64,000 bases of DNA from an uncultured Gammaproteobacteria bacterium (GTDB taxonomy: Bacteria; Pseudomonadota; Gammaproteobacteria; Pseudomonadales; JAHEGP01): NCBI GenBank assembly GCA_963722805.1, contig CAVROQ010000033.1, positions 198,619-262,618 of the forward strand, given 5' to 3'. Of this stretch, positions 2,218 to 62,964 are shown piece by piece. Each line of letters begins with the position of its first letter. Within the stretch, counting starts at the first letter, position 1. The notes beneath the pieces are model-generated. The model did not search any database. It saw nothing but the letters and a program-made list of their open reading frames with translations, and was not told where the DNA came from. Both the position numbers and the translations under genes were made by a program.

Positions 2218-4638
2218 TTAACGGTTGTGCACTGTTTCGACACTGGCGCTGGCACTGCCGCGGTGGCAGACATCGCAGGTCTCAATCGCCCCCGTCGCCG
2301 TGGCATAGGGCGCTGCAAATAAACCACCCTGGCTTTGCATATGTTGCTTGCTGGCAGCGCTGTCATGGCAACTGCTGCAAACCGCAGTGACAGGCGTCGT
2401 TAACAGATCATCCCCAGGGTCGATGATGTCGGTGCCGGTGCCAACACTGGTGGCCAGCACCTCCGGCTCCAGTGGTAGTTGATAGCCGCGGCTGCCGTGG
2501 CAGGTCTGGCAGTTACTGAGGCGGCCGGGGTACTGCACATGTTGCAGGTCGTAGACGTGGGTGCTGAAACCACCGAAGCCGACGATTTGCAGCGGTGCCT
2601 CGCGGAAGGCCGCGGCATGGATGCCGTGGATCATGGTTTTGAAGTCCAGCGATTCTTCGGCTTTGCCATCCGTGGGTGGCTGGCTGGCAACTTCTCGCAC
2701 GCTGCGGTCGGTATTGCGTGGGTTGTGGCAGGTCACGCAGCCCTCGAGCTTGTCGGTGCGGTTGCCGTCATGCAATGACAGGCTCTGGTGGCAATCGAGG
2801 CAGTTATCCAGCACTGCCGACTCGCGCCGGGGGACCGGTCTGGGGTCTGTGATACCGAAATACTCAACAACATTGGTAAGCGGTACCTGGCTCGGCTCGT
2901 CTGCTGTGTCGAGATTCACCACCGGATGGCCCTCGATAGTCACAGCTCCCGAGCCGCTGGCAGCTATATCAGGTGCCAGGCTGCCATCGGGAATCGCCAC
3001 CGGCGAAGTCACGCTAAAGCTGCCGTCGCCGTTGCTGCTAGCGCTGGCCAGGGCATTGATCGAGACTGAACTGGCGCCGCTACTGTCTTCGGGTTTACTC
3101 CCGGCGTTGCCGGTGTTGGTGTAGTCCGAGGTCGACCAGGCCACAGTGACGGCAAGCCGGCTGGCACCCCCGCTGGCACCCCCGCCCTGGGTCCACTCAG
3201 GGTCGCTGAGAATGTTGTAGCTACTGTTGTTATTGTTGGGGTTGACGATACTGAACCTCACCGCGGGGTTTTGTCCCGGCGCTGTGTTACTGATTTCGAG
3301 TATTCTTGCTTCAAAGTTGGTGCTGGCTTCGGCAACCAGATTGCGGTGCGCCTGCTGCGGCCCTTTTGCCCTGCCGCCTTCAATATGGCAATTCATGCAG
3401 GGCTGTTCACCCCCTCCGCCATGCCGCAGTTTGTCGTCGTGGCAGGACTCGCAGGCAACTCGCCCGCCATAGGTGACCCAGTTGTGGCCATCTGTTGTCA
3501 GCACCGCGGTGGGTGCCGGCAGGTCATTGATTTCGGCGTAATCGACGTCTTCTTGCCCGGCGTGGCAGCGGGCGCAGTTGTTAATGACCCCGGGGTAGAT
3601 AATATCCGAGTAGTCGTGCTCACTATTGCTAAATCCCCAGATTTTATAGGGCGTACCATCTTCCACGCTGGGCAGGCTTGCGCCGCGGTGAATGCGGTGC
3701 GCCATGATTTTGAAATCGACCGAGTTTTCGCTATTGGCGTCTGTGCTGTCGGGGTTGTGGCAGCTTACGCAGTAATCCATTTCGGTGCGGCCCCCGCCAT
3801 GCAGGGCCAGATTTTCGTGACAGGTATTGCAGGTCGCGGTGGCGACCACCTGGCGACCTGGATAATTCTGGTAGAAGCCCTGGTCCAGCGAGGTTGCGCG
3901 CTCGCCGATGGCGGAATTGACCAGGTCCTCGGGCACAAAATCAATGCAGGCGTTGTTGGTTCTAGCCTCAAGTGAAAACTGGAAGCAGATACGATGGGTC
4001 TCTCCCAGGGTCGACGGGTCGCCGGGATTGGTAACCATGGTATAGGACCAACTGCCATCCTGGTTCAGCACCAACTCGCCACCGCTTTCGGTGGTGGCGT
4101 AGTTGCGGGCGACTTTGCCGGTGGCCACCGGGTCCTGTACTTTACGTGCGGAGTCGGGGATCGCATCTGGATCGGTGGTGCTGGTAAAGCTGGTGCATTG
4201 GTTGGCGCTGGCGCTGACATCGGAGGCGCTTCTGCACACCGGGTCCTCACTGCGGTTGATCAGGGATTCCCAGTCGCTGGTGTCAAACTCGGTACCGTCG
4301 ACAAGTTTGACAAAACTGGCGCGCAACGCACTGTTGTCCAACCCGGTTACCCGTTGCAGCTTATTCGCCACCAGGGTGAAGCTGACGGTCGGCGGACTAT
4401 CGAAGCGGATAGCAACAATATTCGCCTGCACGGTATCACTACTGGTTAATTGTGCGGCATCGATGCTGTCTGAGGGTAGCACCGGCGGCGGTGGCGTTAC
4501 CGGTCCGTCGGGCGGTGTAGGTCCGGGTTCGACGCCGGGCGCGCGGTCGCCGCCGCCCCCGCCACCGCAAGCGAATAGGGCAAGGCTGATCAGGCAGCTT
4601 GCCAGTCCAGTCCGAATTGTGGTCGTCATGGTTGTCAC
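2218..4638 (-). CDS. mtrC: Outer-membrane decaheme c-type cytochrome lipoprotein, MtrC/OmcA family
   Basis: 806-aa ORF. Lipobox LALFAC is followed by a Gly/Pro-rich linker. Exactly 10 CXXCH motifs (CNTCH, CVSCH, CARCH, CESCH, CMNCH, CLDCH, CVTCH, CQTCH, CSSCH, CDVCH). Lies directly downstream of the mtrA/mtrB-like genes. Confidence 0.85.
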   Translation of the reverse strand: MTTMTTTIRTGLASCLISLALFACGGGGGGDRAPGVEPGPTPPDGPVTPPPPVLPSDSIDAAQLTSSDTVQANIVAIRFDSPPTVSFTLVANKLQRVTGLDNSALRASFVKLVDGTEFDTSDWESLINRSEDPVCRSASDVSASANQCTSFTSTTDPDAIPDSARKVQDPVATGKVARNYATTESGGELVLNQDGSWSYTMVTNPGDPSTLGETHRICFQFSLEARTNNACIDFVPEDLVNSAIGERATSLDQGFYQNYPGRQVVATATCNTCHENLALHGGGRTEMDYCVSCHNPDSTDANSENSVDFKIMAHRIHRGASLPSVEDGTPYKIWGFSNSEHDYSDIIYPGVINNCARCHAGQEDVDYAEINDLPAPTAVLTTDGHNWVTYGGRVACESCHDDKLRHGGGGEQPCMNCHIEGGRAKGPQQAHRNLVAEASTNFEARILEISNTAPGQNPAVRFSIVNPNNNNSSYNILSDPEWTQGGGASGGASRLAVTVAWSTSDYTNTGNAGSKPEDSSGASSVSINALASASSNGDGSFSVTSPVAIPDGSLAPDIAASGSGAVTIEGHPVVNLDTADEPSQVPLTNVVEYFGITDPRPVPRRESAVLDNCLDCHQSLSLHDGNRTDKLEGCVTCHNPRNTDRSVREVASQPPTDGKAEESLDFKTMIHGIHAAAFREAPLQIVGFGGFSTHVYDLQHVQYPGRLSNCQTCHGSRGYQLPLEPEVLATSVGTGTDIIDPGDDLLTTPVTAVCSSCHDSAASKQHMQSQGGLFAAPYATATGAIETCDVCHRGSASASVETVHNR

Positions 4639-4683
4639 CTGTCTAGTACTCCCACCGCTAGTGCGTGTAGTAGCGGCTGTATA

Positions 4684-6999
4684 TCAGGGAAGTCGATAAA
4701 TGACCGACAACCCCAGGTAGTTGGTGGCCTCATCGGGGCTTTGTTCACCAAAGCTCAGCACTTTGTTGATGGTGTCTGGCGCAACATCGTCGATCGCCCA
4801 GTTGTCGCTTTGATAATAGAAATACTGGTAGTCAAGGTTCAGTGTCAGCTTGTCGCGCAGGTGGTATTGACCGCCAAGGCGCAATTGATGCTGGCGGGTT
4901 TTCCGGTCGGGAGTGGCGGTGGCAACGATGTAGGCCGCGCCATAGCTCACGTAATCGTTGTCGCCGACGGTTTCGATAAAGCTGTAATCGATTTCCAGAT
5001 CCAAACGGGGCATGGCGCGCCACTGCATGGCTATGCCAAGCGCCTGGACGGTGTCGTCGCTGTTGACATCCCAATCGCGGCTGGGGTCGCTGGCCTGGGG
5101 CAGGGGTGGAGTGACCGCGAAGGGGTTTTTCTCGACGCCACCCCGAAAAGCACGGCCCGATTGGGAGGCCGAGTAGCGGTTGTAATTCAGGTAGGCACTG
5201 ACATTGAGATCTTCATGGGCCTGGTAATTGGCGCTGAAGACATAGCTCTGAATGCGCTCGTCGGTCAGCCCCAGGGTGCTCTTGTCAAAGTCATCCTCGC
5301 GCCATAGCAGGTTTAGCCCCAGGCTCCAGCGGCTGGAGAGCAGGTAATTGAGGTCGACCTTGGCGCGCAGGCGCTCACGATTGGACAGCTGGTATTGACT
5401 CAGCAGTGGATGGTTGGAAAAGCGCTGGTTGTCGGGGGTTTCATTGATCAACTCGGTGTCGTAACGCGAATAGTAGGATTGTGACCATTGGTAGGTGTCG
5501 GCCGCGAGGTCGGCGTAGAGTAAATCGAGCCTCGCGCTTAGCGGCTGCCAGGTATTAATGGTCAGTTGCCCGCCAAGGCTGCTTTCATCGGTGTGCTCCA
5601 CTGCGGCATTACTGCGCTCAACCCGGTCGTAGGTATACTCAAGCAGAAGCTTGGTACGCTTGGGCAGGCGATAGCCGGCCTCAAAGGCGATGGTCTGCTT
5701 GCGGGTGTCGTGGGGCGCATTGTAGGCAGTATATTTTTCTGCGGGTTGGTCAGCACCGTCACCCCGCACATAAAGGTAGCCGTCCCGGGGGCTGTCGTTA
5801 GCGCGATCGGCGTAGCGATAGCGAGCCTCCAGCGTGAGGTTACGGGTGGCACGGGCATGTGCGCTGAGCATCAGGGTGGTGGTGGCGAGCTCGGCATCGA
5901 GGTCGCTGCGTGGCAGCCCCTGGGTGACAAATAATGCCGGGTTTATGGTGTAGTCGGGAAAGTCATCGTGTTGTTCAGTGATAGCGTAACTGCCGTCGAG
6001 CATCACCCTCAGGGTGGGTGACACGATCCAGTTTCCGGTCAGCCGCAGTCGTTGGTAGCGATTGTCCGGGGCGAGGGCAAGGGCGCCGATGCCGTTGGGA
6101 TAATCCACTGCCTGGCCGTAGCCGGCGATGTAGGGATTCTGCCAGCTGAGAAGATCTTCGTTGTTGGTAAAGTCGCTGAAGTGGTAACTGGCTGCCAAAT
6201 TCAGCGAGCGCCCTGTGTAATTAAAAGCGAGGTCAAAATCGGTTGTGCGCTGGTCCACCGGTTGTGGCAGTAGTGCAGCCAGTGGGCCGGCAGCATCATT
6301 GTAAATCGCGCCGCCAAGGTCGGTGGTGCCATTTTTCTGCTCGCTGCTGAATGTGGTTTGCAGGGCCCAGCCAGCCCCCAGAACGGTGTCAAATTGGAGG
6401 CCATATTCTTTGCGCTCCAACTTGCGTTCGAAGTTGTCCAGCGCAGGGTACAAAAGGCCCCAGTCGGAGGTGTTGGGGCCACCCTGCCAGCCCGGCGGTA
6501 GCACCAGAGTGGAATTCCCGGCACCGATAAAAGGTGTCTGGGCGGTGTTGTTTTTTACCTGTACCTGGTCGTTAAAAAACAATGCCAGGCGGCGCTCACC
6601 GGCCATACCCCATTCGAGCTTGCCCCTGCGGGTTTCAAGGCCGAGGTCACGGCCGTCAATCTGCCAATACTGGTTACTGCTGTCGCGCCATTTAAGCCAA
6701 TTGATATTGCCAATAAATACGGCACCGCGTTCATACAGGCCGTTGTACTGGCCGAACATAAAGTTGTCATCGCTAACATAACCGACGCCAGCCTCTACCT
6801 GGCCGCTGTAGTCAATTTCCCAGCGGCTGGCCAATGGCCTGGTTTCGGCTGCCAGGGCACTGTAGGGGTCGGACTGGGGAGGTGGATCAGAGCTTGCGTC
6901 GTCGGCGACGGCGCCCCCGGCCATAGCAGTTGCCAGCAGTGTCGGCAGCAGTTGCAAGCCGAGTAGGTAAAGCGCGCCGGAATGCTGTGTCTGTGCCAT
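4684..6999 (-). CDS. mtrB: MtrB/PioB-type outer membrane beta-barrel porin of a porin-cytochrome complex
   Basis: ORF 4684..7071 trimmed to ATG 6999, which has GGGAGGA upstream; the longer start overlaps the mtrA-like gene. Signal peptide ends ...LLATAMAGGAVA. About 770 aa, rich in Y/G/D/N with alternating strand-like pattern. Sits 14 bp after the periplasmic decaheme gene. Confidence 0.8.
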   Translation of the reverse strand: MAQTQHSGALYLLGLQLLPTLLATAMAGGAVADDASSDPPPQSDPYSALAAETRPLASRWEIDYSGQVEAGVGYVSDDNFMFGQYNGLYERGAVFIGNINWLKWRDSSNQYWQIDGRDLGLETRRGKLEWGMAGERRLALFFNDQVQVKNNTAQTPFIGAGNSTLVLPPGWQGGPNTSDWGLLYPALDNFERKLERKEYGLQFDTVLGAGWALQTTFSSEQKNGTTDLGGAIYNDAAGPLAALLPQPVDQRTTDFDLAFNYTGRSLNLAASYHFSDFTNNEDLLSWQNPYIAGYGQAVDYPNGIGALALAPDNRYQRLRLTGNWIVSPTLRVMLDGSYAITEQHDDFPDYTINPALFVTQGLPRSDLDAELATTTLMLSAHARATRNLTLEARYRYADRANDSPRDGYLYVRGDGADQPAEKYTAYNAPHDTRKQTIAFEAGYRLPKRTKLLLEYTYDRVERSNAAVEHTDESSLGGQLTINTWQPLSARLDLLYADLAADTYQWSQSYYSRYDTELINETPDNQRFSNHPLLSQYQLSNRERLRAKVDLNYLLSSRWSLGLNLLWREDDFDKSTLGLTDERIQSYVFSANYQAHEDLNVSAYLNYNRYSASQSGRAFRGGVEKNPFAVTPPLPQASDPSRDWDVNSDDTVQALGIAMQWRAMPRLDLEIDYSFIETVGDNDYVSYGAAYIVATATPDRKTRQHQLRLGGQYHLRDKLTLNLDYQYFYYQSDNWAIDDVAPDTINKVLSFGEQSPDEATNYLGLSVIYRLP

Positions 7000-7013
7000 T
7001 GCGCGTCCTCCCG

Positions 7014-7973
7014 CTACCTGGCCAGCACCGCCCCGGAGGGGTGGTTGGAACCATGGACCTGGCTGTGACAATTCAGGCAGTTCTTGCCCAGCATGTTCTG
7101 GTTGGCGTCACCGTTAGGCAGGCCACTGCCGCTATACAGGGTGCTGGGATGAAAAGCCGCCGAATGACACTGCTGGCAGAGGAACGGTCCCCGTGAGGTG
7201 AGTAGGTTATCGTTGACCGAGCCGTGGGGCTGGTGGCACAGGCTGCAGTCCTCGGCCGCCGGTGCATGTTCGAACAGGTAGGGTCCGCGCAGTTCGGCGT
7301 GGCAGCTGTAACAGTTGTCATTCAATGTAGGCTGGAGCAGGGCAAAGGGAGTTGCTGAGCCATGGCTGTTATGGCAATCGCTGCATACGGTGCGACCTTC
7401 CTTTATCGGGTGACGCGATGGCAGGTTGGCCTCGGTGCGTTGGCGCGGATGGCATTGGTAGCAAACGCCGGCCTGGGTCATATCATCCAGCAGCGGGTCC
7501 TGTTGTAAGTGCACCTGGTGACACTGGCTGCAACTGATGTCTTCGTCGTGGTGCACGCTGCCGGCCCAGAGCATTTGCTTACCACCCTGGTGGCATGCAA
7601 GGCAGGTGTTATCGCGCTGCCGCGCAGAGGAAGTCCAGCGTGGTCCAAAGCTTATCTGGGGTGCTTGCACCACGGGTGAGCGGCTGTGAGCAACACTGTT
7701 ACCGTGGCAACTGACACAGTTGCTATTGCCGCCCGTGTCCATCCTGCCGTGGACAGTATGTAAAATGGATTGCACCGGCACATCGGCGCTGGGCGCGTGG
7801 CAGCCCATGCAATCGGCAGCCTCTTCTGTCGCGGCAGTCTCGGTCGCAGCCAATGCCCCCGGTAGCACCAGCCAGGCGAACAAGCATACCAGCGTCAGGC
7901 GGCCAAGGCAGCGGCGGATGCCGGGCGGGCTGGCGCTGCGTGTTGCAATTGCTGCTGTCATTGCTACCTTCAT
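7014..7973 (-). CDS. mtrA: Periplasmic decaheme c-type cytochrome, MtrA/DmsE/PioA family
   Basis: 319 aa with an N-terminal signal peptide and 10 CXXCH motifs (CMGCH, CVSCH, CLACH, CSQCH, CYQCH, CSDCH, CYSCH, CSLCH, CQQCH, CLNCH). Size and heme density are typical of MtrA. Immediately precedes the porin gene. Confidence 0.9.
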   Translation of the reverse strand: MKVAMTAAIATRSASPPGIRRCLGRLTLVCLFAWLVLPGALAATETAATEEAADCMGCHAPSADVPVQSILHTVHGRMDTGGNSNCVSCHGNSVAHSRSPVVQAPQISFGPRWTSSARQRDNTCLACHQGGKQMLWAGSVHHDEDISCSQCHQVHLQQDPLLDDMTQAGVCYQCHPRQRTEANLPSRHPIKEGRTVCSDCHNSHGSATPFALLQPTLNDNCYSCHAELRGPYLFEHAPAAEDCSLCHQPHGSVNDNLLTSRGPFLCQQCHSAAFHPSTLYSGSGLPNGDANQNMLGKNCLNCHSQVHGSNHPSGAVLAR

Positions 7974-8021
7974 TACGGCTTTCGTTGCGCTTTGCGGCGG
8001 CTATTGGCGCGACAAGTGGAT

Positions 8022-9581
8022 TCAGGGTGCACTAAGGAAATCACTATCTTTGCTGGTAAGGCTGAACGTCATTGGCAGTGATACCCAGTGAGCGCCAGCA
8101 GCCTGGCCGGCCCCCTGCAGGGCGACACCAAAGGAATACTGTCCCTTGCGGGTGAAGCTCTTCTGGTTCGCTGTGCCCTGCAATGGCCGACTGAAATTCA
8201 CCGTCCAGCGACCGTCCTTGAAGTTGGCATTAGCGCTCAAGTTACTGTTTGCGACCCAGTCGATTCCTGCCAGAATGCTGGCGCTGCGGGCACTGGCGCC
8301 TTTGCTGAGGCCGAGCTTCCAGAGCTCAACATAGTTGCCCTCGGCCATCAGTTGGTCGAGCTCAGCAGGCGCGAGGGTTTGCACCGGCCTGCCAATTTGA
8401 TACGCCTGGTTACGAGATACCGCGAGGTATTTGTCGAGACCCTGGCCGCGGTCGCGCTTCATCCCGGGCATATCGCTATGGCAGGCAGCCCAACAGGCCC
8501 CGCGGCCAAATTCCTGGTTGCCGCCATCGCCCCACATAATGGCAATTTGTTGATCATCCGCCCCACCAAGCCAGCTGAGGCTGACCAGTAGTGCATCCTT
8601 TTGGCGCTTGAAGGCAATGCTGATATCACGCGCTGCTGTGGCGCCAGGCGCAGCCAGTTTCGCTCCCATGGTTTTCTCGTCACCCTGGTGGCAGGTTTCG
8701 CAGTCGAGACCCTGGCGCAGCGGCTGTGAACCGGGGTGCTCGCTTGTCAGCCATTCCCGATCTATTTGCCCCGGGCTAAAAAGGGTAATGGTTTTTCTGC
8801 TAACGGCAGTGGCTGGCAGCACTGGGGCCACGCTGTTGGCTGGGGCGTGAGCAATGCCGCTGTGGCAGTCGATGCAGGTTCGACCCGGCTGGGTCATAGT
8901 CTTGTGATAACTGGTAGCCTTGGCGCTAACCCTGGGGTCCTTTGCCATCGCGACCAAATTGTGACAGGAGTTACAGCCGGCGGAGCGATTGTTTCGCATC
9001 TGGCGCTCGGCGTCCGGATTGCCGTGGGGGTTGTGACAGCTGCTACAGGGAGGATTGTCGGCGATTTTTTCCGGCAGCGAGTGAATGCCGCTTTTCTGGG
9101 TTTTGTGGCACAGCAGGCAGATTTGGGCCTGGGTGTTGTTTTGCAGGGCTTTGTCGGCCTCGGCGTGGGCATCGTGACAGGTAGCGCAGCCTATGTTTTG
9201 TGTGGCGTGGACAGAGTCGTGCCATGCTTTGCCGACGTTAGCACTGTGGCATTCCAGGCACTGGGTATTCTGCTGTTCAATACCGCTGTTCCAGCGCGGT
9301 CCAAAACTTACCCCGGGGGAATTGATGGTAGGTGCGTTGGCATGGGCGGCGCTGGGGCCATGGCAGGACTCGCAGCCGCGTTCGGCCATCGGGCTACCCT
9401 GCTGCTGGGGGTCGCCGTGGGGTGTCGCCAGCAGCGGGTGTACCGGTGACTGGTCGCTATAGTCATGACAACCCAGGCATTGTTTTGCGCCATCAGTGGA
9501 GTAAGCATCGTTTGCGGCAGCGAGATAACCTGCGCCAAGACAGCAAACTATAAATGCAAGGTAGCGGAGTAGTTTTGCCAT
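8022..9581 (-). CDS. Secreted 9-heme c-type cytochrome with a C-terminal EB_dh/DOMON-like domain
   Basis: ORF 8022..9776 trimmed to ATG 9581 (MAKLLRYLAFIVCCLGAGYLAAA signal peptide); the longer form overlaps the cymA-like gene. Nine CXXCH motifs plus one CWAACH (CX3CH). The N-terminal half aligns by eye with the MtrA-like protein (SFGPRW block). The C-terminal ~200 aa (WGDGG...ACWAACH...LWKLG...DGRWTVNFSRPL...YSFGVAL) resembles the ethylbenzene-dehydrogenase-type heme domain. Confidence 0.75.
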   Translation of the reverse strand: MAKLLRYLAFIVCCLGAGYLAAANDAYSTDGAKQCLGCHDYSDQSPVHPLLATPHGDPQQQGSPMAERGCESCHGPSAAHANAPTINSPGVSFGPRWNSGIEQQNTQCLECHSANVGKAWHDSVHATQNIGCATCHDAHAEADKALQNNTQAQICLLCHKTQKSGIHSLPEKIADNPPCSSCHNPHGNPDAERQMRNNRSAGCNSCHNLVAMAKDPRVSAKATSYHKTMTQPGRTCIDCHSGIAHAPANSVAPVLPATAVSRKTITLFSPGQIDREWLTSEHPGSQPLRQGLDCETCHQGDEKTMGAKLAAPGATAARDISIAFKRQKDALLVSLSWLGGADDQQIAIMWGDGGNQEFGRGACWAACHSDMPGMKRDRGQGLDKYLAVSRNQAYQIGRPVQTLAPAELDQLMAEGNYVELWKLGLSKGASARSASILAGIDWVANSNLSANANFKDGRWTVNFSRPLQGTANQKSFTRKGQYSFGVALQGAGQAAGAHWVSLPMTFSLTSKDSDFLSAP

Positions 9582-9615
9582 GATAGCGATTCCTTTTATC
9601 CCCTGGTCTGCGCGT

Positions 9616-10221
9616 CTAGCCTTCCAGTGGAGGGTAAGCCGCAGCCGTTTGGCCTTCCGGGGTATGGGCAATGCCCCGGTGGCAGTCGATACAGGTTTTA
9701 TTCTTGTGTTCCACTGCCTGGTGATATTTTTGAGCTTTTTCTGTCTGCAACTCGAGAATAGTCTGCGACACCTCATGGCAATTGCGACACTCTGCCGAGT
9801 CGTTCGCCTTTAGCCGTGCAATCTCCCGTGCCTTCATTACCGGCGCGTGGGCGGCGTACTTTTCCGGGGTGTCGATTATGCCGGTAAAGTGACCCCACAC
9901 CTCGCGTGCGGCCTCAACCTTACGAATCATCTTGGGTATAAACGGTTGCGGAACATGGCAGTCAGAGCAGGTTGGTCGCACGCCGGTCTTATTATGAAAA
10001 TGGCTGGTACTTTCCAGCATTGCGTAGGAGTTATCGTACATTTCATGGCAGCTGGTGCAGAATGCCTCGGTGCTGGTTGCCTTCAGGCTCACTTCAAAAC
10101 CGACCGCCGACACAATGCCGATAATGATGCCCGTGCCCAGCAGGGCGGCCACTGACCAGCGCGCCGAGGGACTCATCAGTCGGCTCAAGAAGCCCTTTTT
10201 TTGATCCCCGGGATTAGTCAT
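9616..10221 (-). CDS. cymA: Membrane-anchored tetraheme quinol dehydrogenase, NapC/NirT/CymA family
   Basis: 201 aa. One N-terminal TM helix (WSVAALLGTGIIIGIVSAVGF). Four CXXCH motifs (CTSCH, CSDCH, CRNCH, CIDCH). First gene of the cytochrome operon. Confidence 0.8.
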   Translation of the reverse strand: MTNPGDQKKGFLSRLMSPSARWSVAALLGTGIIIGIVSAVGFEVSLKATSTEAFCTSCHEMYDNSYAMLESTSHFHNKTGVRPTCSDCHVPQPFIPKMIRKVEAAREVWGHFTGIIDTPEKYAAHAPVMKAREIARLKANDSAECRNCHEVSQTILELQTEKAQKYHQAVEHKNKTCIDCHRGIAHTPEGQTAAAYPPLEG

Positions 10222-13740: not shown

Positions 13741-14934
13741 TTACCGCTTCAATATGGCAGCAGTCGCGTTGCCACCCAGCCCGAGGGTCTGGGCCAATCC
13801 TACCCTGGCGTTGGGTACCTGGCGTCCGCCTGCCTCGCCGCGTAATTGCCAGGTAAGTTCGGCAATCTGGAAGACACCCATGGCGGTGGTGGCTTCGCCG
13901 AAGGAAACGAACCCGCCGGATGGATTGATGGGCATGCGGCCAGTGGGTGCGGTTGCGCCAGACTCCAGCAATGATTCCGACTCTCCGGCACTGCACAGGC
14001 CCCATTCTTCGGGAAATGCCAGCTCGTAGTAACAGGTGTTGTCCTGGAGCTCGGTCAGGCTGATGTCCCCCGGCCCTATGCCAGCCTGCTCAAATGCTCG
14101 GGTAACGGCGAGTTGGGCTTCGGTGTGCAGGTTGGGGCATTGGGTGATCGGGTCGGCGAGGCTGCGCGGCAGCATATCGTCAAAGGTCATGGTGGCGACA
14201 GTGCTGCTTGCCACGGTAATCGGCTTGCCGGTGAACTGGCGCGCTTTTTCCTTTGAGCATACTACCGCCGCAGCTGCACCGTTAGAAACCGGGCATATCT
14301 GGAACAAGCGCAGGGGGTTGCTGACATAGGGTGACTGCATTACCTGCTCGAGGGATATTTCCTTTTGAAAACGAGCGTAGGGATTGTGGACCGAATTTTT
14401 GCGTGCTTTTACTGCTACCTGGGAAAATTGCTCTTCCGTAGTGCCGTGCTCGTACATGCGTCGACGGGCCAGGGTTGACCAGAACGAAGGACCCGGCATG
14501 CCGACACAGCGCTGTCGCAAAAACTCTGGATCGGTGGTTTCTTCAAGGCCTGAAGTCTGGATCATACCTTTGGGCATGACCTCTCCACCAACCACCAACA
14601 CCATATCGTAAACGCCGCCGGCGACCAGAGCATAGCCAATATTGAAGGCATTGCCACCGGCGGCGCAGCCGGCTGAGAGGTTGTACACCGGAATGCCGGT
14701 GGAGCCCATGTCTTCGACCACATCATTGCCATTGAGACCCCAGCCCTTGCCGCCGGAAAATCGTGAGCTGGCCGCAGAAACAGCCTGGATATGCTTCCAG
14801 CTGACGCCGGCATCTGCGAGGGCGGCGTCTACCGCGTGGCGACACAGGGCCTTGACAGACTTGTGGCCAACGATATTGTCGCCGGTCTTGCCAAAGCGGT
14901 GCATGCCCACGCCCAATACCGCAACTTCACGCAT
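13741..14934 (-). CDS. Thiolase-like protein, SCP-x/nonspecific lipid-transfer type
   Basis: 397 aa. N-terminal REVAVLGVGMHRFGK and C-terminal GGNATAAILKR are typical of DUF35-associated thiolases. Starts 4 bp after the DUF35 gene. Confidence 0.8.
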   Translation of the reverse strand: MREVAVLGVGMHRFGKTGDNIVGHKSVKALCRHAVDAALADAGVSWKHIQAVSAASSRFSGGKGWGLNGNDVVEDMGSTGIPVYNLSAGCAAGGNAFNIGYALVAGGVYDMVLVVGGEVMPKGMIQTSGLEETTDPEFLRQRCVGMPGPSFWSTLARRRMYEHGTTEEQFSQVAVKARKNSVHNPYARFQKEISLEQVMQSPYVSNPLRLFQICPVSNGAAAAVVCSKEKARQFTGKPITVASSTVATMTFDDMLPRSLADPITQCPNLHTEAQLAVTRAFEQAGIGPGDISLTELQDNTCYYELAFPEEWGLCSAGESESLLESGATAPTGRMPINPSGGFVSFGEATTAMGVFQIAELTWQLRGEAGGRQVPNARVGLAQTLGLGGNATAAILKR

Positions 14935-18356: not shown

Positions 18357-19856
18357 ATGAATATAATGATGTTGCTGGAGATGGCGTCCCAGGGTTTTGG
18401 CGAGCGTATTGCTTTTACCCACGGTGACGATTCACTCACATACAAGGAGTTGTATCACGCAGCCGGTGCTGCCGCTGCCTATATTCGTGAGTCGGGCTGT
18501 AGTTATGTGGCGATGCTGGATGTCAGCAGTCTGGCGGCGCCGGTGGCTTTGTTTGGCAGCGCCTGGGCGGGGGTCGCCTATGTGCCGATCAACTATCGCC
18601 TCGCCGGGCATGAAATCAAGGCTTTGTTGGAGCGGGTGGAACCGGCGCTATTGATTACCGGGGCCGATCAACAGCATGAATTCAGTGGTCACGCCAACAT
18701 CCATCCATTGCAGCGCGATAAGTTTCTCGCTCTGGCTCGCAACGGTAATCCGCCCGGGCCGGACTGGTCAATGGACGCTGAGGATACCGGGGTGTTGCTA
18801 TTCACCAGTGGCACTACCGGTGCCCCCAAGGCTGCGCTGCTGCGCCAGAAGCATCTGGTATCTTATATTCTTGGCTCCGTAGAATTCATGTCGGCGGCAG
18901 AAGACGATGCGGCGTTAGTGTGTGTGCCGCCCTATCATGTGGCGGGCATTTCTGCGATGTCGAGTTCTGTATATTCCGGGCGAAGGGTCGTACAGCTGTC
19001 CGATTTTGAGCCCCGCGCCTGGCTCGACCTGGTGCGGCAAGAACGCATCAGCAATGCTTTTGTGGTGCCGACTATGTTGGCGCACATTATCGAAACGGTT
19101 GAGCGCGACGGCGATACGGCGCTACCCAGCCTGCGTTCGCTGGCTTACGGTGGCGGCAAGATGCCGCTATCGGTTATTGAGCATGCGATGCGCCTGTTCC
19201 CCAATGCTGAATTCACTAACGCTTATGGTTTAACCGAAACCAGCTCTACGGTTGCGGTGCTGTGCCCGCAGGATCATCGCCTTGCCGCAGCCAGTGATAA
19301 CCCCGCCATCAGGCGACGTTTGGTGTCGGTGGGCCAGGCCTTACCGGGGGTTGAGGTGCAAATCCGGGATGATGACGGCACACCCCTGGGAGCGGGCCAG
19401 CGCGGCGAAATCTTTGTGCGTGGTGAGCAGGTTTCGGGTGAATATGTGGGGACTGGCAGTCTGCTCGATGCCGCAGGCTGGTTTCCTACCCGGGATGCGG
19501 GTTCGATGGACGCAGACGGTTACTTGTTTCTGGAGGGCCGGGCTGACGATGTCATTGTTCGCGGCGGTGAGAATATGTCGCCGGGTGAAATCGAGGATGT
19601 TTTGCTGGAACATCCGGGGGTTGCCGATGTGGCTATCGTCGGGATTCCGGACGAGCAGTGGGGTGAGGCGGTGGCAGCCGCGGTGGTGCTCAAACCCGGG
19701 CAGTGCGCCGATGCTGCTGCTTTGCAGCAATGGATTAAAGATCGTATGCGCAGCTCCCGGGTACCGAATGTGTTGATGTTCTGGCCGGAGCTTCCCTATA
19801 ACGAAACGGGTAAGTTGTTGCGACGGGTGGTGAAGGCTGAGTTGGCGAAAGCCTGA
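18357..19856 (+). CDS. AMP-dependent acyl-CoA synthetase/ligase
   Basis: ORF 18312..19856 trimmed to ATG 18357. AMP-binding motif LLFTSGTTGAPKAALL. Later YGLTETS, GWFPTRD and GKLLRR motifs of adenylate-forming enzymes. Confidence 0.85.
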   Translation: MNIMMLLEMASQGFGERIAFTHGDDSLTYKELYHAAGAAAAYIRESGCSYVAMLDVSSLAAPVALFGSAWAGVAYVPINYRLAGHEIKALLERVEPALLITGADQQHEFSGHANIHPLQRDKFLALARNGNPPGPDWSMDAEDTGVLLFTSGTTGAPKAALLRQKHLVSYILGSVEFMSAAEDDAALVCVPPYHVAGISAMSSSVYSGRRVVQLSDFEPRAWLDLVRQERISNAFVVPTMLAHIIETVERDGDTALPSLRSLAYGGGKMPLSVIEHAMRLFPNAEFTNAYGLTETSSTVAVLCPQDHRLAAASDNPAIRRRLVSVGQALPGVEVQIRDDDGTPLGAGQRGEIFVRGEQVSGEYVGTGSLLDAAGWFPTRDAGSMDADGYLFLEGRADDVIVRGGENMSPGEIEDVLLEHPGVADVAIVGIPDEQWGEAVAAAVVLKPGQCADAAALQQWIKDRMRSSRVPNVLMFWPELPYNETGKLLRRVVKAELAKA

Positions 19857-19910
19857 ATCTTGCAACCGGCAGAGTATTCCTTCATCTGTTCGATATTGAT
19901 TGTGGCGATT

Positions 19911-20738
19911 GGCCACTCCAAACCGTGACTCGCCGTGAACCCATCCATGGGGGCTCGGGCGCCGGGTCCTACCGGCGCACGGTCCCGGTCCGGAGCGGCC
20001 AATCGCTGGCGTGTATTTGAGTGTATTCCGGTATTTCATGCGGTTTGTTGTCGGACACTATGGGATTTGCGTAGTGCTGAATTGGCGCTGGGCCTCTCCA
20101 AACCGGGACTCGCCGTGAACCCATCCCTGGGGGCTCGGGCGCCGGGTCCCACCGGCGCACGGTCCCGGTCCGGAGCGGCCAATCGCTGGCGTGTATTTGA
20201 GTGTATTCCGGTATTTCATGCGGTTTGTTGTCGGACACTATGGGATTTGCGTAGTGCTGAATTGGCGCTGGGCCACTCCAAACCGTGACTCGCCGTGAAC
20301 CCATCCCTGGGGGCTCGGGCGCCGGGTCCCACCGGCGCACGGTCCCGGTCCGGAGCGGCCAATCGCTGGCGTGTATTTGAGTGTATTCCGGTATTTCATG
20401 CGGTTTGTTGTCGGACACTATGGGATTTGCGTAGTGCTGAATTGGCGCTGGGCCACTCCAAACCGTGACTCGCCGTGAACCCATCCCTGGGGGCTCGGGC
20501 GCCGGGTCCCACCGGCGCACGGTCCCGGTCCGGAGCGGCCAGTCGCTGGCGTGTATTTGAGTGTATTCCGGTATTTCATGCGGTTTGTTGTCGGACACTA
20601 TGGGATTTGCGTAGTGCTGAATTGGCGCTGGGCCACTCCAAACCGTGACTCGCCGTGAACCCATCCCTGGGGGCTCGGGCGCCGGGTCCCACCGGCGCAC
20701 GGTCCCGGTCCGGAGTGGCCAAGCGCTGCATGTATTTG
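19911..20738. repeat. Tandem array of a 180-bp unit, 4.6 copies, over 98 percent identical
   Basis: Units start at 19911, 20091, 20271, 20451 and 20631; the last is partial and decays after about 20738. Only about 5 substitutions across the full copies. Sits between two convergent genes. Confidence 0.95.
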
Positions 20739-20780
20739 TGCTTTCTGGCGCCTAGTTGCGGATGATCACCGCGGTGGAGG

Positions 20781-21548
20781 TTATTTTGGCTTGAGGTTGA
20801 TAAGACCTTTGATCAGGTCCTTGGCGGCTTCAGCAGGCGCGCCTTCCAGGTGTTTGTCAATAAATGCGTCTGCGCCTTGTTGCGAGGCGACTTTGGATAC
20901 CGCGTGGCTTAGTGCTGTAGTCACTTCTTTGCCGATTTCAGCTGGCGTCCCCCCTGATACACCGCCGAGGTCCGTCAGTTGCAATGCCGGCAGTTTTGCC
21001 TCATAGCGCTCTGCACCCAGGGCGGTCAGGTCGGCGGCAACGATCCCCTCTTGAAAGGTAAACTGGTCGATACGCAGGCGCTTGGCAGGAGTGCTGTTGG
21101 CAGGGGTGTCATCGGTGGGTTCAGTCCGGCCGCCCTTGGCTGAGCTTTTTGCATGTTTGCCAATAACGTCCATATTGGTTTTACCCTCGGTATTGGCCTC
21201 AAGGTTTACTTTAGGTCCAGTTACCAGCACTTGCCTGATAATAATCGGTTCGCCCGAGATTGAAGCCAATTCGATGGCCACCGTAAACTGCTCCAGCTCA
21301 AATGCCGTGCCGTCAGAGAACCCTGGAGGATTGGCGACCTTCAAGCCGCGGATGGTGCCTTCGCCGCTACGTGGTGAAATGCTGACGCTGGCTACCTCGA
21401 CCCGGGTGCCGGTGATCGCCGAGCCGTAGCTTTCAATGGCCTTTTTTACCAGCGGGTCGAGGTTGGATGAGAGGTAGTAGGCAGCTGCAACGACCAGGAG
21501 TATAACCAGGGCAATCGAGCCCAACACAATATTGCGAGTCTTCATCAA
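20781..21548 (-). CDS. Hypothetical membrane-anchored protein
   Basis: 255 aa. A single N-terminal TM helix (IVLGSIALVILLVVAAAYYL) followed by a soluble domain. No motif I can name. Confidence 0.5.
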   Translation of the reverse strand: MMKTRNIVLGSIALVILLVVAAAYYLSSNLDPLVKKAIESYGSAITGTRVEVASVSISPRSGEGTIRGLKVANPPGFSDGTAFELEQFTVAIELASISGEPIIIRQVLVTGPKVNLEANTEGKTNMDVIGKHAKSSAKGGRTEPTDDTPANSTPAKRLRIDQFTFQEGIVAADLTALGAERYEAKLPALQLTDLGGVSGGTPAEIGKEVTTALSHAVSKVASQQGADAFIDKHLEGAPAEAAKDLIKGLINLKPK

Positions 21549-21576: not shown

Positions 21577-22758
21577 TTAGTCGGTGTTGACGATGTTATC
21601 GATAAGCCCCCAATCGAGGGCGGTCCTGGCGTCTATCGCCTGCCCTGAAAGCGCCAGCCAGGCACAACGGTGTCTGCCGATACGTCGCAGGACGCTCACC
21701 GTACCTCCAGCGCCGGGTATCAGGCCGAAGGACACTTCAGGCAGTTTAAAAAAGCTGTCCGCCTGGGCTTGTATATGGTGACAGAAAGCCGGAAGTTCAA
21801 TGCCGGCGCCGATACAGGCGCCATGTACATGGCATTCGATGCGCTCGGCATTATCGTTTATCAGACGCCCGGCACTGCGCATCGAACGCACTGCATGGGC
21901 GCTGGCGGCGTCGGGCAGGGTGCCGAATTCGTCGAGGTCGCCACCGGCAGAAAAGTGTTTGCCATTGCCGCAGATAGTGGCAATGGTGATGCTGGTATCG
22001 GTTGCCAGCAGGTGCAGGGCCTCAACCAGGCCGTCGCGCATGGCAACGGAAAAGGCGTTGGCGCGGTCGGGCCGATTCAGCTCTATTGTCAGCCGCTTGT
22101 CCACGCGATGGTAGATTACTGCCGGCTGTGTTTGGTGTTCAGTGCCCGGCGGTTTTTTTTGTTTGATAAAGCGTCGGAACTCAGCCCCTCCTTGCAGTGT
22201 TGAATAGGCCAGCGATTCCGCCAGCAAGCCATCGCTGATAGATGCACGCTCATTGTGACGTAAGAGCTGCACCAGGGTCATGGCGGCGATGGGATTATTG
22301 CGAATGTTGCTACAAAGTGCCTCGGCATCCTCTGTGGTATTTACCGTGGTGTCGCACAGTGGCCCGGCGGTGTCTGGTATGGACCCCACGGCTATAACAG
22401 GACAACACAGCTGCGGCAGATATGCCTGTAACTGCCGCGCCTGGGATACAGTCACCGCCTGCAAATCCAGTAGCAGGAATGGCTGCTCCCCGAAGGGTGA
22501 AAAGTTCTCGCTGGCCGCTGGACTTGCCAGCTGTAACAAAATTTCGGCGGCGCTGTGTAAGTGATTGGGCATGGTCGGTGCGGATCTGTCCCGGGGGCTT
22601 TGTTTTGGATTCAGGTTGACGGTAACACAAAAGTGGGCATGCTCTAAGGCGCCTCGGGTGATTTTGCTATCACCTATCGGGTCGCTCGCTGAAGCTGCGG
22701 GGGCCAGAGCAGAGTAGGCTCTCACTGCCAGCTCTGCTGATGGGACACTAGCAGCCAT
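21577..22758 (-). CDS. Enoyl-CoA hydratase/isomerase family protein with a ~190-aa N-terminal extension (start uncertain)
   Basis: The C-terminal ~200 aa is crotonase-like (LTIELNRPDRANAF...GNGKHFSAGGDLDEFG...HGACIGAGIELPAFC). An alternative start at ATG 22572 is possible. Confidence 0.65.
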   Translation of the reverse strand: MAASVPSAELAVRAYSALAPAASASDPIGDSKITRGALEHAHFCVTVNLNPKQSPRDRSAPTMPNHLHSAAEILLQLASPAASENFSPFGEQPFLLLDLQAVTVSQARQLQAYLPQLCCPVIAVGSIPDTAGPLCDTTVNTTEDAEALCSNIRNNPIAAMTLVQLLRHNERASISDGLLAESLAYSTLQGGAEFRRFIKQKKPPGTEHQTQPAVIYHRVDKRLTIELNRPDRANAFSVAMRDGLVEALHLLATDTSITIATICGNGKHFSAGGDLDEFGTLPDAASAHAVRSMRSAGRLINDNAERIECHVHGACIGAGIELPAFCHHIQAQADSFFKLPEVSFGLIPGAGGTVSVLRRIGRHRCAWLALSGQAIDARTALDWGLIDNIVNTD

Positions 22759-36087: not shown

Positions 36088-36187
36088 TTGACGCAGTGTA
36101 GTTGACGCAGTGTAACTGACGCAGTGTAACTGACGCAGTGTAACTGGCGCAGTGCAGCTGGCGCAGTGCAAACACGCAGTGCAAAGG
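36088..36187. repeat. 14-bp tandem repeat: 7 copies of the core CGCAGTG in an intra-operon gap
   Basis: TTGACGCAGTGTAG / TTGACGCAGTGTAAC / TGACGCAGTGTAAC x2 / TGGCGCAGTGCAGC / TGGCGCAGTGCAAACA / CGCAGTGCAAAGG. Cores at 36092, 36106, 36120, 36134, 36148, 36162 and 36175. Confidence 0.9.
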
Positions 36188-55550: not shown

Positions 55551-57068
55551 ATGGGTGCAGCAAATGTCTTTCGTCCCCTCGCGGGCTGGCAGTTATCAAT
55601 GCCGGCCCCGGAGTCGGTTGCCGATGCATATGCAAACCAATTATTGCGTGACCTGGGTGCCGGACTACCCGATCCCGTCATTGGCAATACCGTTGACGCG
55701 GCATTGGCCTGGGCCGACTCGGGCTTAATGTTCCTCTGTGGTGAGCTGAACCAGCCCCCACGACAGGGGCCCGGTGCGATTCCCTCCTGTGCCCGCGGGG
55801 TGATCAGTGCCATTCGAATGTTGGCGCCGCAAACCTTGTCCTCGGATATCGATGGTGCACTTTTACTGAGCGAACGAGCGGCCATGCTGGGCTTGCATGC
55901 CAGGGGCTCGATGTCGCCGAATCAAAGCTGCCGCGTGTTGCCCAGCCTGGATGGCTGGCTGGCGCTGAACCTGGCGCGTCGAGAAGATTGGCTCTCGTTG
56001 GCGGCATGGTTACAAGCTGATAAGCCGATAGATAATTGGGATAGCGTCCGCCAGGCCGTGGCGCAGCGATACACCAATGAACTGGTCGAGCGTGGCCGAT
56101 TATTGGGTTTGCCCCTCGCGGCGGCCAAGGTCACCACCAAAACTGCAAAGCCCTGGTTCAGGCTGCAGCAGCGCGGATGGCAGCGACCGCCACCTGCCGC
56201 AACAACCGGGCCGCTGGTAATCGATTTGTCATCACTGTGGGCTGGCCCACTGTGCAGCCACTTACTGCAGCAGGCAGGTGCGCGGGTGATCAAGGTTGAG
56301 AGTTTGCAACGACCCGACGGGGCCCGGCCCAGCGGGGTGCCGCCCGACGGGGCCCGGCCCGGCGGGGCCCGGCCCGGCGGGGTGCCGCCCAGCGGGGTGC
56401 CGCCCAGCAGGATGCACCCCGACGAGTCGCAAGCAGATCTTACCGGTTATAGCGATTTCTATCATTTGCTCAATGCCGGAAAATCCTCTGTGGCCCTGGA
56501 TTTCTCCCGTCCCGAGGGAGTGCGTCAATTGCAGGCGCTGCTGCGCCATGCAGATATCGTTATCGAGGGGTCGCGCCCGCGGGCGCTGCAGCAACTGGGT
56601 ATCGACGCCGGGGCCATCGTGCAGTCGAAACCCGGCCTGGTCTGGCTGGGAATCAGTGGCTACGGGCGCAGCCAGCCTGAAGCCAATTGGGTGGCCTTTG
56701 GTGACGATGCGGCGATGGCGGCGGGTGTCGCCAATACCGGGGCCAGCTCGCCGCTGTTTGTGGGTGATGCCCTGGCTGACCCGCTCTGTGGTGTGCATGC
56801 TGCGCTACTGGCGTTGGCCTGTTGGCGCGCGGGTGAAGGCGCTCTGCTGGACATATCACTGCACGACGTGGCGGCACATTGCCTGGCCTATGCCCCGAGC
56901 ATTGTGCAAGGAGATGTTGTTGCCGGCCCTGGACAGCAATGGCAGTTTGCCATTGCCGGACACAGCACCCAAATAAGAAAACCACAGGCGCGCCGCCCCT
57001 TGCAACTGGCTGCCAGGCTGGGCGCAGATACTCGCACTGTGCTGCGGGAGTTTGCGATTCCATGTTAA
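55551..57068 (+). CDS. Atypical family III CoA-transferase-like protein with rearranged domain order and a pentapeptide-repeat insertion
   Basis: 505 aa. The N-terminal ~200 aa align by eye to the distal large-domain plus small-domain part of a CaiB unit (SGLMFLCGELNQPP..., LPSLDGWLALNLARREDWLSLAAWL). The C-terminal ~280 aa start with the normal head (LVIDLSSLWAGPLCSHLLQQAGARVIKVES) and keep the Asp block (FVGDALADP...AGEG), but lack a small domain. Confidence 0.65.
   Translation: MGAANVFRPLAGWQLSMPAPESVADAYANQLLRDLGAGLPDPVIGNTVDAALAWADSGLMFLCGELNQPPRQGPGAIPSCARGVISAIRMLAPQTLSSDIDGALLLSERAAMLGLHARGSMSPNQSCRVLPSLDGWLALNLARREDWLSLAAWLQADKPIDNWDSVRQAVAQRYTNELVERGRLLGLPLAAAKVTTKTAKPWFRLQQRGWQRPPPAATTGPLVIDLSSLWAGPLCSHLLQQAGARVIKVESLQRPDGARPSGVPPDGARPGGARPGGVPPSGVPPSRMHPDESQADLTGYSDFYHLLNAGKSSVALDFSRPEGVRQLQALLRHADIVIEGSRPRALQQLGIDAGAIVQSKPGLVWLGISGYGRSQPEANWVAFGDDAAMAAGVANTGASSPLFVGDALADPLCGVHAALLALACWRAGEGALLDISLHDVAAHCLAYAPSIVQGDVVAGPGQQWQFAIAGHSTQIRKPQARRPLQLAARLGADTRTVLREFAIPC
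56316..56420. repeat. In-frame 15-bp tandem repeat, 7 units, inside the CoA-transferase-like gene
   Basis: GACGGGGCCCGGCCC / AGCGGGGTGCCGCCC / GACGGGGCCCGGCCC / GGCGGGGCCCGGCCC / GGCGGGGTGCCGCCC / AGCGGGGTGCCGCCC / AGCAGGATGCACCCC. Encodes DGARP-SGVPP-DGARP-GGARP-GGVPP-SGVPP-SRMHP. Confidence 0.9.
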
Positions 57069-61552: not shown

Positions 61553-62964
61553 ATGCTTAAAGTTCGCTGGCCGGGTTTCCCCGGCGCGTCGTCACCGGCG
61601 CTTGTTCTCAAAGGCCTCTTCCTGACATCTATTCTCACTCTTGCTGCTTGCGGCGGGGGAGGCGGTGGATCGGATGACACGGGCGTCGTGGAGCCGACGC
61701 AACCGCCCGTCGTACCGCCCGCAGTGCCCGTGGAGCCGACGCAACCGCCCGTCTTGCCGCCCGTAGTGCCCCCCGAGCCCGATCCGGTGTTTGAAGTGGG
61801 CGATCCGCTGATTTCCCCTGCCCCCTCGGGGCTGGATTTCTACCAGCCGCCGTCACCATTACCCGGGCGCAACGGCGATGTGATCTGGGCAAAACAGCTT
61901 GCATCGGTGGCGAATGGCCGAATCTGGCAGGTGCTGTATCGTTCCCAATCGACTAACGGTGAACCCATAGCCGTCTCCGGTTGGCTCGGCGTGCCCGACA
62001 GTCCGCAGCCGTCAGGTGGTTTCCCGATGGTGGCTTTTGGTCACGGCACTACCGGGCTGGGTGATCAATGTGCACCTACCAGGCGCTCCAACCCTACAGA
62101 AACCATTGCCTTGCTAGGGGATTTTCTGGCGCGCGGGTATGCGGTGGCGGCGACCGATTACCAAGGGCTCGGCACGCCTGGCCTGCACCAATACCTGGTG
62201 GGTCCGAGCCAGTCTTATAGCCTGCTGGATTCTGCCCGCGCTGCCCAGCGCTTTGCTGGCGCAGGGAACCAGCTGATTCTGTTTGGTCACTCACAGGGTG
62301 GCCATGCCGTCATCCTGGCTAGCGAAACGGCGCCGAGCTATGCCCCAGAGTTGAACGTGGTGGGAACCATTGGCTCCGGTTCCGGTGTCATCGACGATTC
62401 CGGGGATATATTGTCGGCCCTGAAGCAATCATATTATAAAGGCTATGTGGTGATGACTGCCTGGGCCCAACGCGCGGCATACGGTGGCGAAGCCCATTAC
62501 CCGGCGACGGCGCTGCACCACTGTCACTATGGTTAACCGAATATGGTATTCAATGATCGGAGGAAAATAATTTGATATGCAATGTGTGGGTGAGATCATT
62601 GATGACTACAGCAGTGTCGACGGTAGACTTGCTGTTTGTTCCGGGCGCGCCTCTGCCCAAGACCGGGATTGACGTTGACTACGCCGATTCCATTCCTGGG
62701 CTCAAGTCTGGGGCTTCGCCGCTGTTGATGATTCACGGTCGCCGGGATGACCAGATACCGCCAGCCGGGGTAATTCTCTGGGTTGAACAGACCTGTGACA
62801 ACCCCGACGTGGAGATGGCGATCCAGCTGGAATGGTTTGATACCGGTCACCGGGTGCCCTATGAGGATCCCGAGGGTGCAGCCGATGTGATATTCCCCTG
62901 GATCGATGCCCGCTTTGCAGGAAGTCCGGCACCCTCCAGTTGTGGCAATGTGCCGCGGCCTTGA
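61553..62964 (+). pseudogene. Secreted alpha/beta-hydrolase (lipase-like) lipoprotein gene disrupted by several frame breaks
   Basis: ORF 61553..62536 carries the lipobox LTLAAC, a Pro-rich linker and the nucleophile elbow GHSQGG. ORF 62572..62964 carries the acid/His part (IHGRRDDQIP...FDTGHRVP). All three frames have stops between 62534 and 62572. Protein-like sequence switches frame again near 62615. Confidence 0.5.
61688..61771. repeat. In-frame 42-bp tandem duplication in the lipase linker
   Basis: GTGGAGCCGACGCAACCGCCCGTC(G/T)T(A/G)CCGCCCG(C/T)AGTGCCC x2. Encodes VEPTQPPVVPPAVP / VEPTQPPVLPPVVP. Confidence 0.85.

Follow-up and report, generated by a model that had tools for sequence, protein, structure and literature searches.

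Tandem hairpin elements between convergent genes of a gammaproteobacterium: a probable diverged TwoAYGGAY variant and possible CsrA/RsmA sponge

What is a 180-bp sequence that is repeated almost unchanged between two convergent genes, and does it act as DNA or as RNA? The repeat lies in a 64,000-nucleotide stretch of DNA (the window) from a gammaproteobacterium near Halieaceae / Spongiibacteraceae. A first-pass annotation of the sequence had proposed a giant REP/BIME-like element, a tandem structured ncRNA array or a young minisatellite. Tandem Repeats Finder placed the array at 19903-20738, with 4.7 copies, 97% matches and no indels, and returned the same period of 180 bp that had been reported before. 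The position between convergent genes was also confirmed. An AMP-binding gene on the plus strand has its stop codon at 19856, 52 nt from the array, and a DUF748 gene on the minus strand ends at 20781, with the array directly downstream of it on the same strand. The locus is composed of the following features, the covariance model R1 being described below.

18366..19856, plus strand: AMP-binding (acyl-CoA synthetase-like) gene, assigned by Pfam; 496 aa as called on contig L001
19903..20738, minus strand: whole tandem array of five hairpin elements and four identical linkers, period 180 bp; defined by Tandem Repeats Finder, the sequence and R1 hits on the minus strand only
20363..20448, minus strand: linker, AT-richer, 86 bp; also at 20003-20088, 20183-20268 and 20543-20628
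20723..20780, minus strand: diverged linker-like tail from hairpin copy 1 to the DUF748 stop codon, delimited by eye
20781..21545, minus strand: DUF748/AsmA-like gene, 254 aa, assigned by Pfam; the exact protein is present on other contigs

The units starting at 19911, 20091, 20271 and 20451 carry exactly five substitutions relative to their consensus, in line with the earlier estimate of about five, and the final partial copy diverges over its last ~20 nt. Each unit combines a hairpin half of 75% GC with a linker of 48% GC (58% for the window), which matches the GC-rich and AT-richer halves described previously; neither half occurs elsewhere in the 64 kb. The array was rightly distinguished from a CRISPR, as the four linkers are identical, the repeat is ~95 nt long and there are no unique spacers. 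The linkers contain no promoter or GacA-box match and no convincing conserved structure was seen in them; likewise, no promoter-like site was found at 19500-21200 and no GacA-box match near the array. A tRNA/tmRNA scan found nothing. The minus-strand excess of GGA triplets, given as about seven per unit, is real, but the count is six, with three on the plus strand; over the whole array there are 29 on the minus strand versus 14 on the plus strand. A 53-codon ORF is indeed present in each unit, but its coding capacity is doubtful because its ATG is a CTG in a sister lineage. By eye, the tail at 20723..20780 resembles the tail of a single-copy relative, L011.

Other features of the window were recorded along the way. 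At 36089-36184, a 14-bp unit, (T)GRCGCAGTGYAAC, is repeated in tandem about seven times; the repeat lies in the short interval that separates two genes of the same orientation, one for a MaoC-like dehydratase and one for an acyl-CoA dehydrogenase. The core of this repeat, GCAGTGC, resembles a TGCAGTGCC motif that adjoins some hairpin elements at other loci and is not enriched overall. GC-rich tandem repeats at 56313-56408 (15/30 bp) and 61687-61771 (21/42 bp) lie inside a CoA-transferase-like and a lipase-like ORF, respectively, and probably encode low-complexity repeats. A weak ZMP/ZTP riboswitch-like match at 21719-21775, inside an enoyl-CoA hydratase gene (18.8 bits for a cut-off of 39; E=4.9), is most likely due to chance. 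The gene cluster at 2218-9776 resembles MtrC/OmcA, MtrB/PioB and DmsE (decaheme cytochromes and an outer-membrane porin), which suggests extracellular electron transfer, and the host also possesses numerous CoA-transferase and steroid-type catabolic genes.

A single hairpin copy (85% identity over 108 nt) is present in the relative L011, in the same intergenic region but in the opposite orientation; the DUF748 protein of L011 shares 80% identity with that of the window. We searched metagenome contigs with a 28-nt pattern common to the window and L011 and obtained matches in at least 120 of them, with marine, freshwater and sediment samples among the sources. In the listed instances a conserved core is bordered by long arms that are complementary to each other but differ in sequence between copies. 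Seventy-three elements were aligned by MAFFT without reference to structure, and RNAalifold was then applied. The consensus fold comprises 37 pairs in three helices, P1, P3 and P2, and compensatory changes are found in 28 of them. Covariation in homologs, one of the checks proposed with the first-pass annotation, is thus present. In this alignment 95.9% of the paired cells are complementary, against 64.5% in shuffles and 27-45% in slid-partner controls; the pairing test was also run on a larger model-fitted set. As a counterpoint to the RNA interpretation, arm-to-arm gene conversion is another process that could generate compensatory changes in a long palindrome of DNA.

The P1 stem, 20-40 bp long, varies in sequence while its pairing is kept. 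The P2 core appears invariant partly because the search pattern required this region; in copies found only by the covariance model, P2 covaries as well (CCC/GGG, CAC/GUG, GUA/UAU) and its loop is kept. Throughout, GGA is retained while the P2 and P3 stems covary. Among 119 nonredundant listed elements, 80 have two matches to CANGGAYG and 31 have one, where 0.02 would be expected by chance; the median spacing between the two loops is 23 nt.

The covariance model R1, built from the 73-element alignment, yielded 132 hits in 100 loci. Over the 64 kb of the window it gave exactly five hits, all on the minus strand, with scores of 80-91 bits and each aligned end to end. The copies are numbered in minus-strand order.

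19909..20002, minus strand: hairpin copy 5, R1 90.8 bits, E=1e-18; P2 loop CAUGGAUG
20089..20182, minus strand: hairpin copy 4, R1 86.4 bits; the variant GTCCC/GAGAGG closes one P1 mismatch
20269..20362, minus strand: hairpin copy 3, R1 84.8 bits; identical to the array consensus
20449..20542, minus strand: hairpin copy 2, R1 79.9 bits
20629..20722, minus strand: hairpin copy 1, R1 87.3 bits; starts 58 nt past the DUF748 stop codon
20302..20309, minus strand: P2 loop CAGGGAUG, an exact match to CANGGAYG; recurs at 19942, 20122, 20482 and 20662
20326..20331, minus strand: P3 loop UGGGAC (UAGGAC in copy 5), from folds and the R1 alignment; recurs every 180 bp

In this architecture two short hairpins, P3 and P2, emerge from a three-way junction that is closed by P1, the long outer stem. 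Two of the pairings noted in the first-pass annotation have their place in it. The GCGCCGG-GTCCCA-CCGGCGC hairpin is real and corresponds to the P3 helix, which covaries across relatives, and the outer pairing of GGCCACTCC with GGAGCGGCC forms the base of P1. The pairing of ACCGTG with CACGGT is not in a supported register; the supported pairs, written on the plus strand, join ACGG with the second CCGT (in GCCGTGAA) and CCGTGAC with GTCCCGG. CANGGAYG is matched five times on the minus strand of the array and never on the plus strand. The P2 loop contains AUGGAU in one copy and AGGGAU in four, and the P3 loops keep GGA but match neither CANGGAYG nor AYGGAY.

Searching the window against Rfam, a check suggested earlier for the unit, returned nothing relevant, and a connection to a known family emerged only from scanning the relatives. 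The copy on plasmid pHP-187 of Marinobacter adhaerens HP15, at 91264-91360, matches TwoAYGGAY (RF01731) with 43.6 bits, just above the cut-off of 43, with the same architecture and on the same strand, and scores 66 bits with R1. A chain of homology is thereby established, in which R1 joins the window copies at 80-91 bits to this Rfam-positive copy. RF01731 itself gave no hit in the window at the gathering threshold, and none at E<=10 on either 3 kb or 151 nt; besides, only chance hits to miRNA-like hairpins were obtained there. The same was true of the GC-rich branch of the family: 20 loci holding ~31 R1 hits yielded no RF01731 hit at gathering threshold, and a canonical GC-rich element yielded none at E<=10. 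Several elements have weak, sub-threshold matches to Rfam Ysr224 on the opposite strand.

The TwoAYGGAY motif is described as having two terminal AYGGAY loops and a P1 that is often very large (Weinberg et al. 2010, Genome Biol 11:R31, in the excerpt covering this motif). The elements share with it an adjacent pair of hairpins with A-N-GGA-Y loops, an often very long P1 and Gammaproteobacteria as hosts, and the orientation of RF01731 corresponds to the GGA-sense strand here. They differ in that the P3 loop of the window reads UGGGAC rather than AYGGAY, and tandem arrays, inverted type-A/type-B pairs and strand evidence from G.U pairs do not figure in the same excerpt. Judged by these sequence and model comparisons, the window repeat is a diverged, tandemly amplified variant of TwoAYGGAY and not a new class.

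The distribution of G.U pairs bears on the strand that folds. In the outer stems of 94 nonredundant elements, 130 mismatches are G.U on the GGA strand, against 30 on the opposite one; when every pair of the alignment is counted, the numbers become 211 and 9. Two G.U pairs of the core are invariant on the GGA-sense strand, and the bias is present in every gene context, whatever the orientation of the neighboring genes. This asymmetry marks the minus strand of the window as the folding strand.

The history of the array could be traced in other assemblies. Among ENA contigs, L001 contains 3.7 copies, L137 3.7 and L138 4.7. Looking up the exact DUF748 protein retrieved the locus from other samples, including six short-read contigs that break inside the repeat. 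L137 and L138 represent a sister lineage, with a DUF748 protein in the same 90%-identity cluster and a KstD protein 95% identical. Their array has the same site, strand, period and register as that of the window. By eye, the sister unit is ~90% identical to the window unit in the hairpin and ~72% in the linker, and units within each array are 97-98% identical. Both lineages vary in copy number, with four or five hairpins. A diverged unit with unchanged site and register implies that the array predates the split of the lineages and has been homogenized. The element is absent from this locus in the more distant relatives L010 and L139.

These observations contradict the interpretation of the array as a young neutral minisatellite, an assembly artifact or the source of one 53-residue peptide per unit, which we regard as extremely improbable. 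The near identity of the units and the ORF in each of them are what speak for it. However, the array is found in four long contigs of different samples, in addition to the ends of short-read contigs, and is therefore no artifact; in the sister lineage the register is unchanged, the unit has diverged and the start codon of the ORF is lost; and the hairpin belongs to a family of more than 120 members.

Elements of this family are found in intergenic regions of all types, as solitary copies, inverted pairs or tandem arrays. Approximately 26 loci have a second, inverted copy 50-300 nt away, usually with a variant core. A stop codon lies within 150 nt of 46 of the 59 evaluable elements, and convergent gene pairs are over-represented around solitary copies (14 of 37). 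With respect to the upstream gene, six solitary elements are GGA-sense only and 11 are on the other strand only. This absence of preferential co-orientation makes a simple 3′ UTR model unfit for the family. Copy numbers are low, with one element in the 187-kb plasmid pHP-187 and one locus in the 64-kb window, and contigs often end at elements. When a contig has several copies, their stems are unrelated and the apex alone is conserved.

The identified hosts are mostly Gammaproteobacteria. In addition to the window bacterium and Marinobacter, the host of pHP-187, they include a Luteimonas-like member of the Xanthomonadaceae (L112); two copies are on Alphaproteobacteria plasmids, the pDCA-type plasmids of Ancylobacter / Xanthobacter. 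All-against-all clustering of ORFs at ~120 listed loci revealed no recurrent protein family near the elements, only orthologous housekeeping neighbors. Local GC skew gave no replication-strand bias, although the counts (12 vs 7) are uninformative. The flanks of the family showed no promoter, GacA box or terminator, and the upstream side lacked any -10-like or AT-rich signal. Downstream U-tracts are rare, with 10 cases among 92 elements for one strand and 2 among 95 for the other. The notion of independent sRNA genes was rejected because there is neither an upstream promoter-like signal nor a downstream U-tract. A sigma-54 reading of an upstream TGGCAC(TGCA) motif was also dismissed, as the spacing is unfit and the motif is found at only ~10-20% of the listed loci.

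Searches of plasmids and phages with the whole array, of viral contigs with the core pattern and of E. coli genomes returned no match, and a literature search by sequence strings nothing relevant. A 22-mer had two matches only in the genome collection, in Camelimonas and Streptomyces, both attributed to chance.

Several loci have features of their own. On plasmid pDCA of Ancylobacter novellus (L136, 1070-2549), as in Xanthobacter flavus, an inverted TwoAYGGAY-like pair flanks an ISAs1-family transposase gene that is adjacent to a haloalkane dehalogenase gene. At L026 (3772-4823), a tandem array with a period of 466 bp has elements of alternating orientation (+,-,+,-,+) and is the closest analogue of BIME-2 that we found. 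At L033 (~3000-3200), L037 (~1100-1350), L103 and L122, the elements lie inside a second, larger inverted repeat carrying AAGTAAGTGCCATTC, which we take to recall the ERIC2 primer sequence AAGTAAGTGACTGGGG. Simple repeats, namely a (GCAAGA)n microsatellite, TTTGGC runs and a ~70-bp tandem repeat, are found in the spacers or flanks of element pairs at L085 (6063-6370), L092 (~14200-14380 and downstream) and L095 (2652-2861).

Of the three initial readings, the tandem structured ncRNA array is the best supported, as the covarying, TwoAYGGAY-related family folds on the GGA strand, which is the minus strand here. The giant REP/BIME-like element holds as a description of organization, since the elements are solitary, in inverted pairs or in tandem and alternating intergenic arrays, but not as a matter of membership, since the copies of one genome have no stems in common. 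In its general form, this explanation posits a selfish or architectural DNA repeat of the REP/BIME or REPIN type that folds as single-stranded DNA, is spread or maintained by a trans-acting enzyme and has no function as RNA, the array being a BIME-like cluster. It accounts well for dispersal in all types of intergenic region, often just past stop codons as for the REPs of Enterobacteria and Pseudomonas, for the inverted pairs and the alternating array of L026, and for a variable copy number, four to five in the window array. The opposite orientation of the L011 element at the same site, the contig ends and the transposase between the two pDCA copies also fit, and folded DNA also tolerates G.T. 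Against it, the elements are three to four times longer than REPs, and the conservation of the apex together with unrelated stems within a contig is the reverse of what characterizes REPs and MITEs. REPs are species-specific, whereas the core of the elements is conserved across orders. The low copy number, the lack of replication-strand bias and the lack of a recurrent transposase or other protein family at the ~120 listed loci, where no RAYT gene was found either, do not favor it, and a conserved end motif was not apparent in the element listings. We consider such a DNA repeat unlikely. Integron attC sites are another DNA element with a conserved structure, variable stem sequence, a single folding strand and the possibility of arrays. 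In this case, however, the listed stem bases showed none of the R''/R' core sites (RYYYAAC / GTTRRRY), no integrase is near the array, whose neighbors are metabolic genes, and the "cassettes" would be the identical 86-bp linkers.

The proximity to stop codons and the enrichment of solitary copies between convergent genes would also be expected of a bidirectional transcription barrier or 3′-end stabilizer, whose hairpins stop RNA polymerase or exonucleases and whose conserved loops have either another ligand or no role of their own. Downstream of each window hairpin, as read on the plus strand, come GCCAATCGCTGGC and a stretch rich in T, and two such sites were flagged as terminator-like. The rarity of U-tracts in the family argues against this role; it does not need an invariant three-way junction or GGA loops, and the G.U asymmetry is independent of the orientation of the upstream gene. 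We hold it to be quite unlikely. The same low degree of belief applies to a structured RNA that would bind a dimeric partner other than CsrA, or whose loops would pair with UCC in the loops of copies that face the other way. Two identical loops are a feature of sites for dimeric proteins, any transcript that reads through an inverted pair carries a GGA-loop hairpin as well as a UCC-loop one, and the junction sequence is conserved beyond the needs of CsrA. The remark linking identical loops to dimers was made for wcaG, a neighboring motif in the same supplement, in the excerpt of Weinberg et al. (2010). Kissing between CAUG loops was rejected because the N position varies. Placement of RF01731 by Rfam in the Csr/Rsm clan, CL00106, together with RsmW, favors the Csr/Rsm system over such partners. 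The loop consensus CANGGAYG is furthermore the published consensus of CsrA/RsmA.

We thus return to the structured RNA of the TwoAYGGAY class. Both hairpin loops, with their GGA, resemble CsrA/RsmA binding sites, which suggests that the array may be an amplified protein sponge. Sequestration of CsrA by TwoAYGGAY has been proposed from motif matches (Gardner and Eldai 2015). The complete model, in which each 180-bp unit would hold one TwoAYGGAY-class RNA element of ~95-105 nt, read on the minus strand, and the transcribed array may act as an amplified CsrA/RsmA sponge, is put forward tentatively, with a likelihood somewhat short of one half for all its parts taken together; we infer its transcription, CsrA binding and RNase III processing steps. 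The five copies would be transcribed by read-through or would form the 3′ end of an extended DUF748 transcript; there is no terminator in the 58 nt between the DUF748 stop codon and the first hairpin. Each element would be a two-site docking platform for one CsrA/RsmA dimer, with loop GGAs ~23 nt apart, and the array a dosage-amplified decoy or a recruitment platform whose copy number may shift between four and five by unequal crossing-over. A CsrA dimer spans two sites that are separated by 10-60 nt, and the consensus obtained by SELEX for proteins of the CsrA/RsmA family, which are usual in Gammaproteobacteria, is a hairpin loop with CANGGAYG. More speculatively, the long, near-perfect P1 duplex may let RNase III excise each element from any host transcript, as a duplex of 20-40 bp is the kind of substrate that this enzyme cuts. 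Such excision would explain how the elements could work without promoters and terminators of their own.

The comparison with known sponges (CsrB, CsrC, RsmX/Y/Z/W, Aln1a-c) gives a mixed picture. GGA in hairpin loops and the Rfam clan are shared, and tandem sponge genes are known, namely Aln1a-c in Alteromonas and the duplication of rsmX. In contrast, the array has no match to the covariance models of these RNAs. The elements are scattered over many intergenic regions, in both orientations, and have no GacA/UvrY-type box, promoter or U-tract terminator of their own, which also counts against the sponge model. Known sponges have no long closing stem and many more GGA sites per molecule, whereas an element offers two sites and a long duplex. 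Other points against the model are the orientation of the solitary elements, the UGGGAC sequence of P3 in the window, which leaves CANGGAYG to P2 only, and the two copies on plasmids of Alphaproteobacteria, a class with many members without CsrA.

TwoAYGGAY has been an orphan motif since 2010, and the sequestration of CsrA is so far a proposal only. What our analysis adds is a large GC-rich environmental branch missed by the Rfam model (none of ~31 elements in 20 loci), evidence from G.U asymmetry, independent of annotation, on the strand that folds, and the higher-order organization of elements in inverted pairs, alternating clusters and a direct array. An improved covariance model could re-annotate many genomes. 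An array kept and homogenized across lineages at four to five copies is the pattern expected if the dosage of a protein-binding RNA is under selection, and ten loop GGAs within 836 nt downstream of one gene make the CsrA hypothesis directly testable. In a broader and doubtful extension, TwoAYGGAY-type elements would be widespread, genome-dispersed CsrA/RsmA decoys that RNase III excises by way of P1. They might then be the missing antagonists in environmental Gammaproteobacteria where no CsrB/RsmZ-type RNA is recognizable, such as the Halieaceae relatives and Xanthomonadaceae like the host of L112, with tandem arrays setting the dosage by their copy number.
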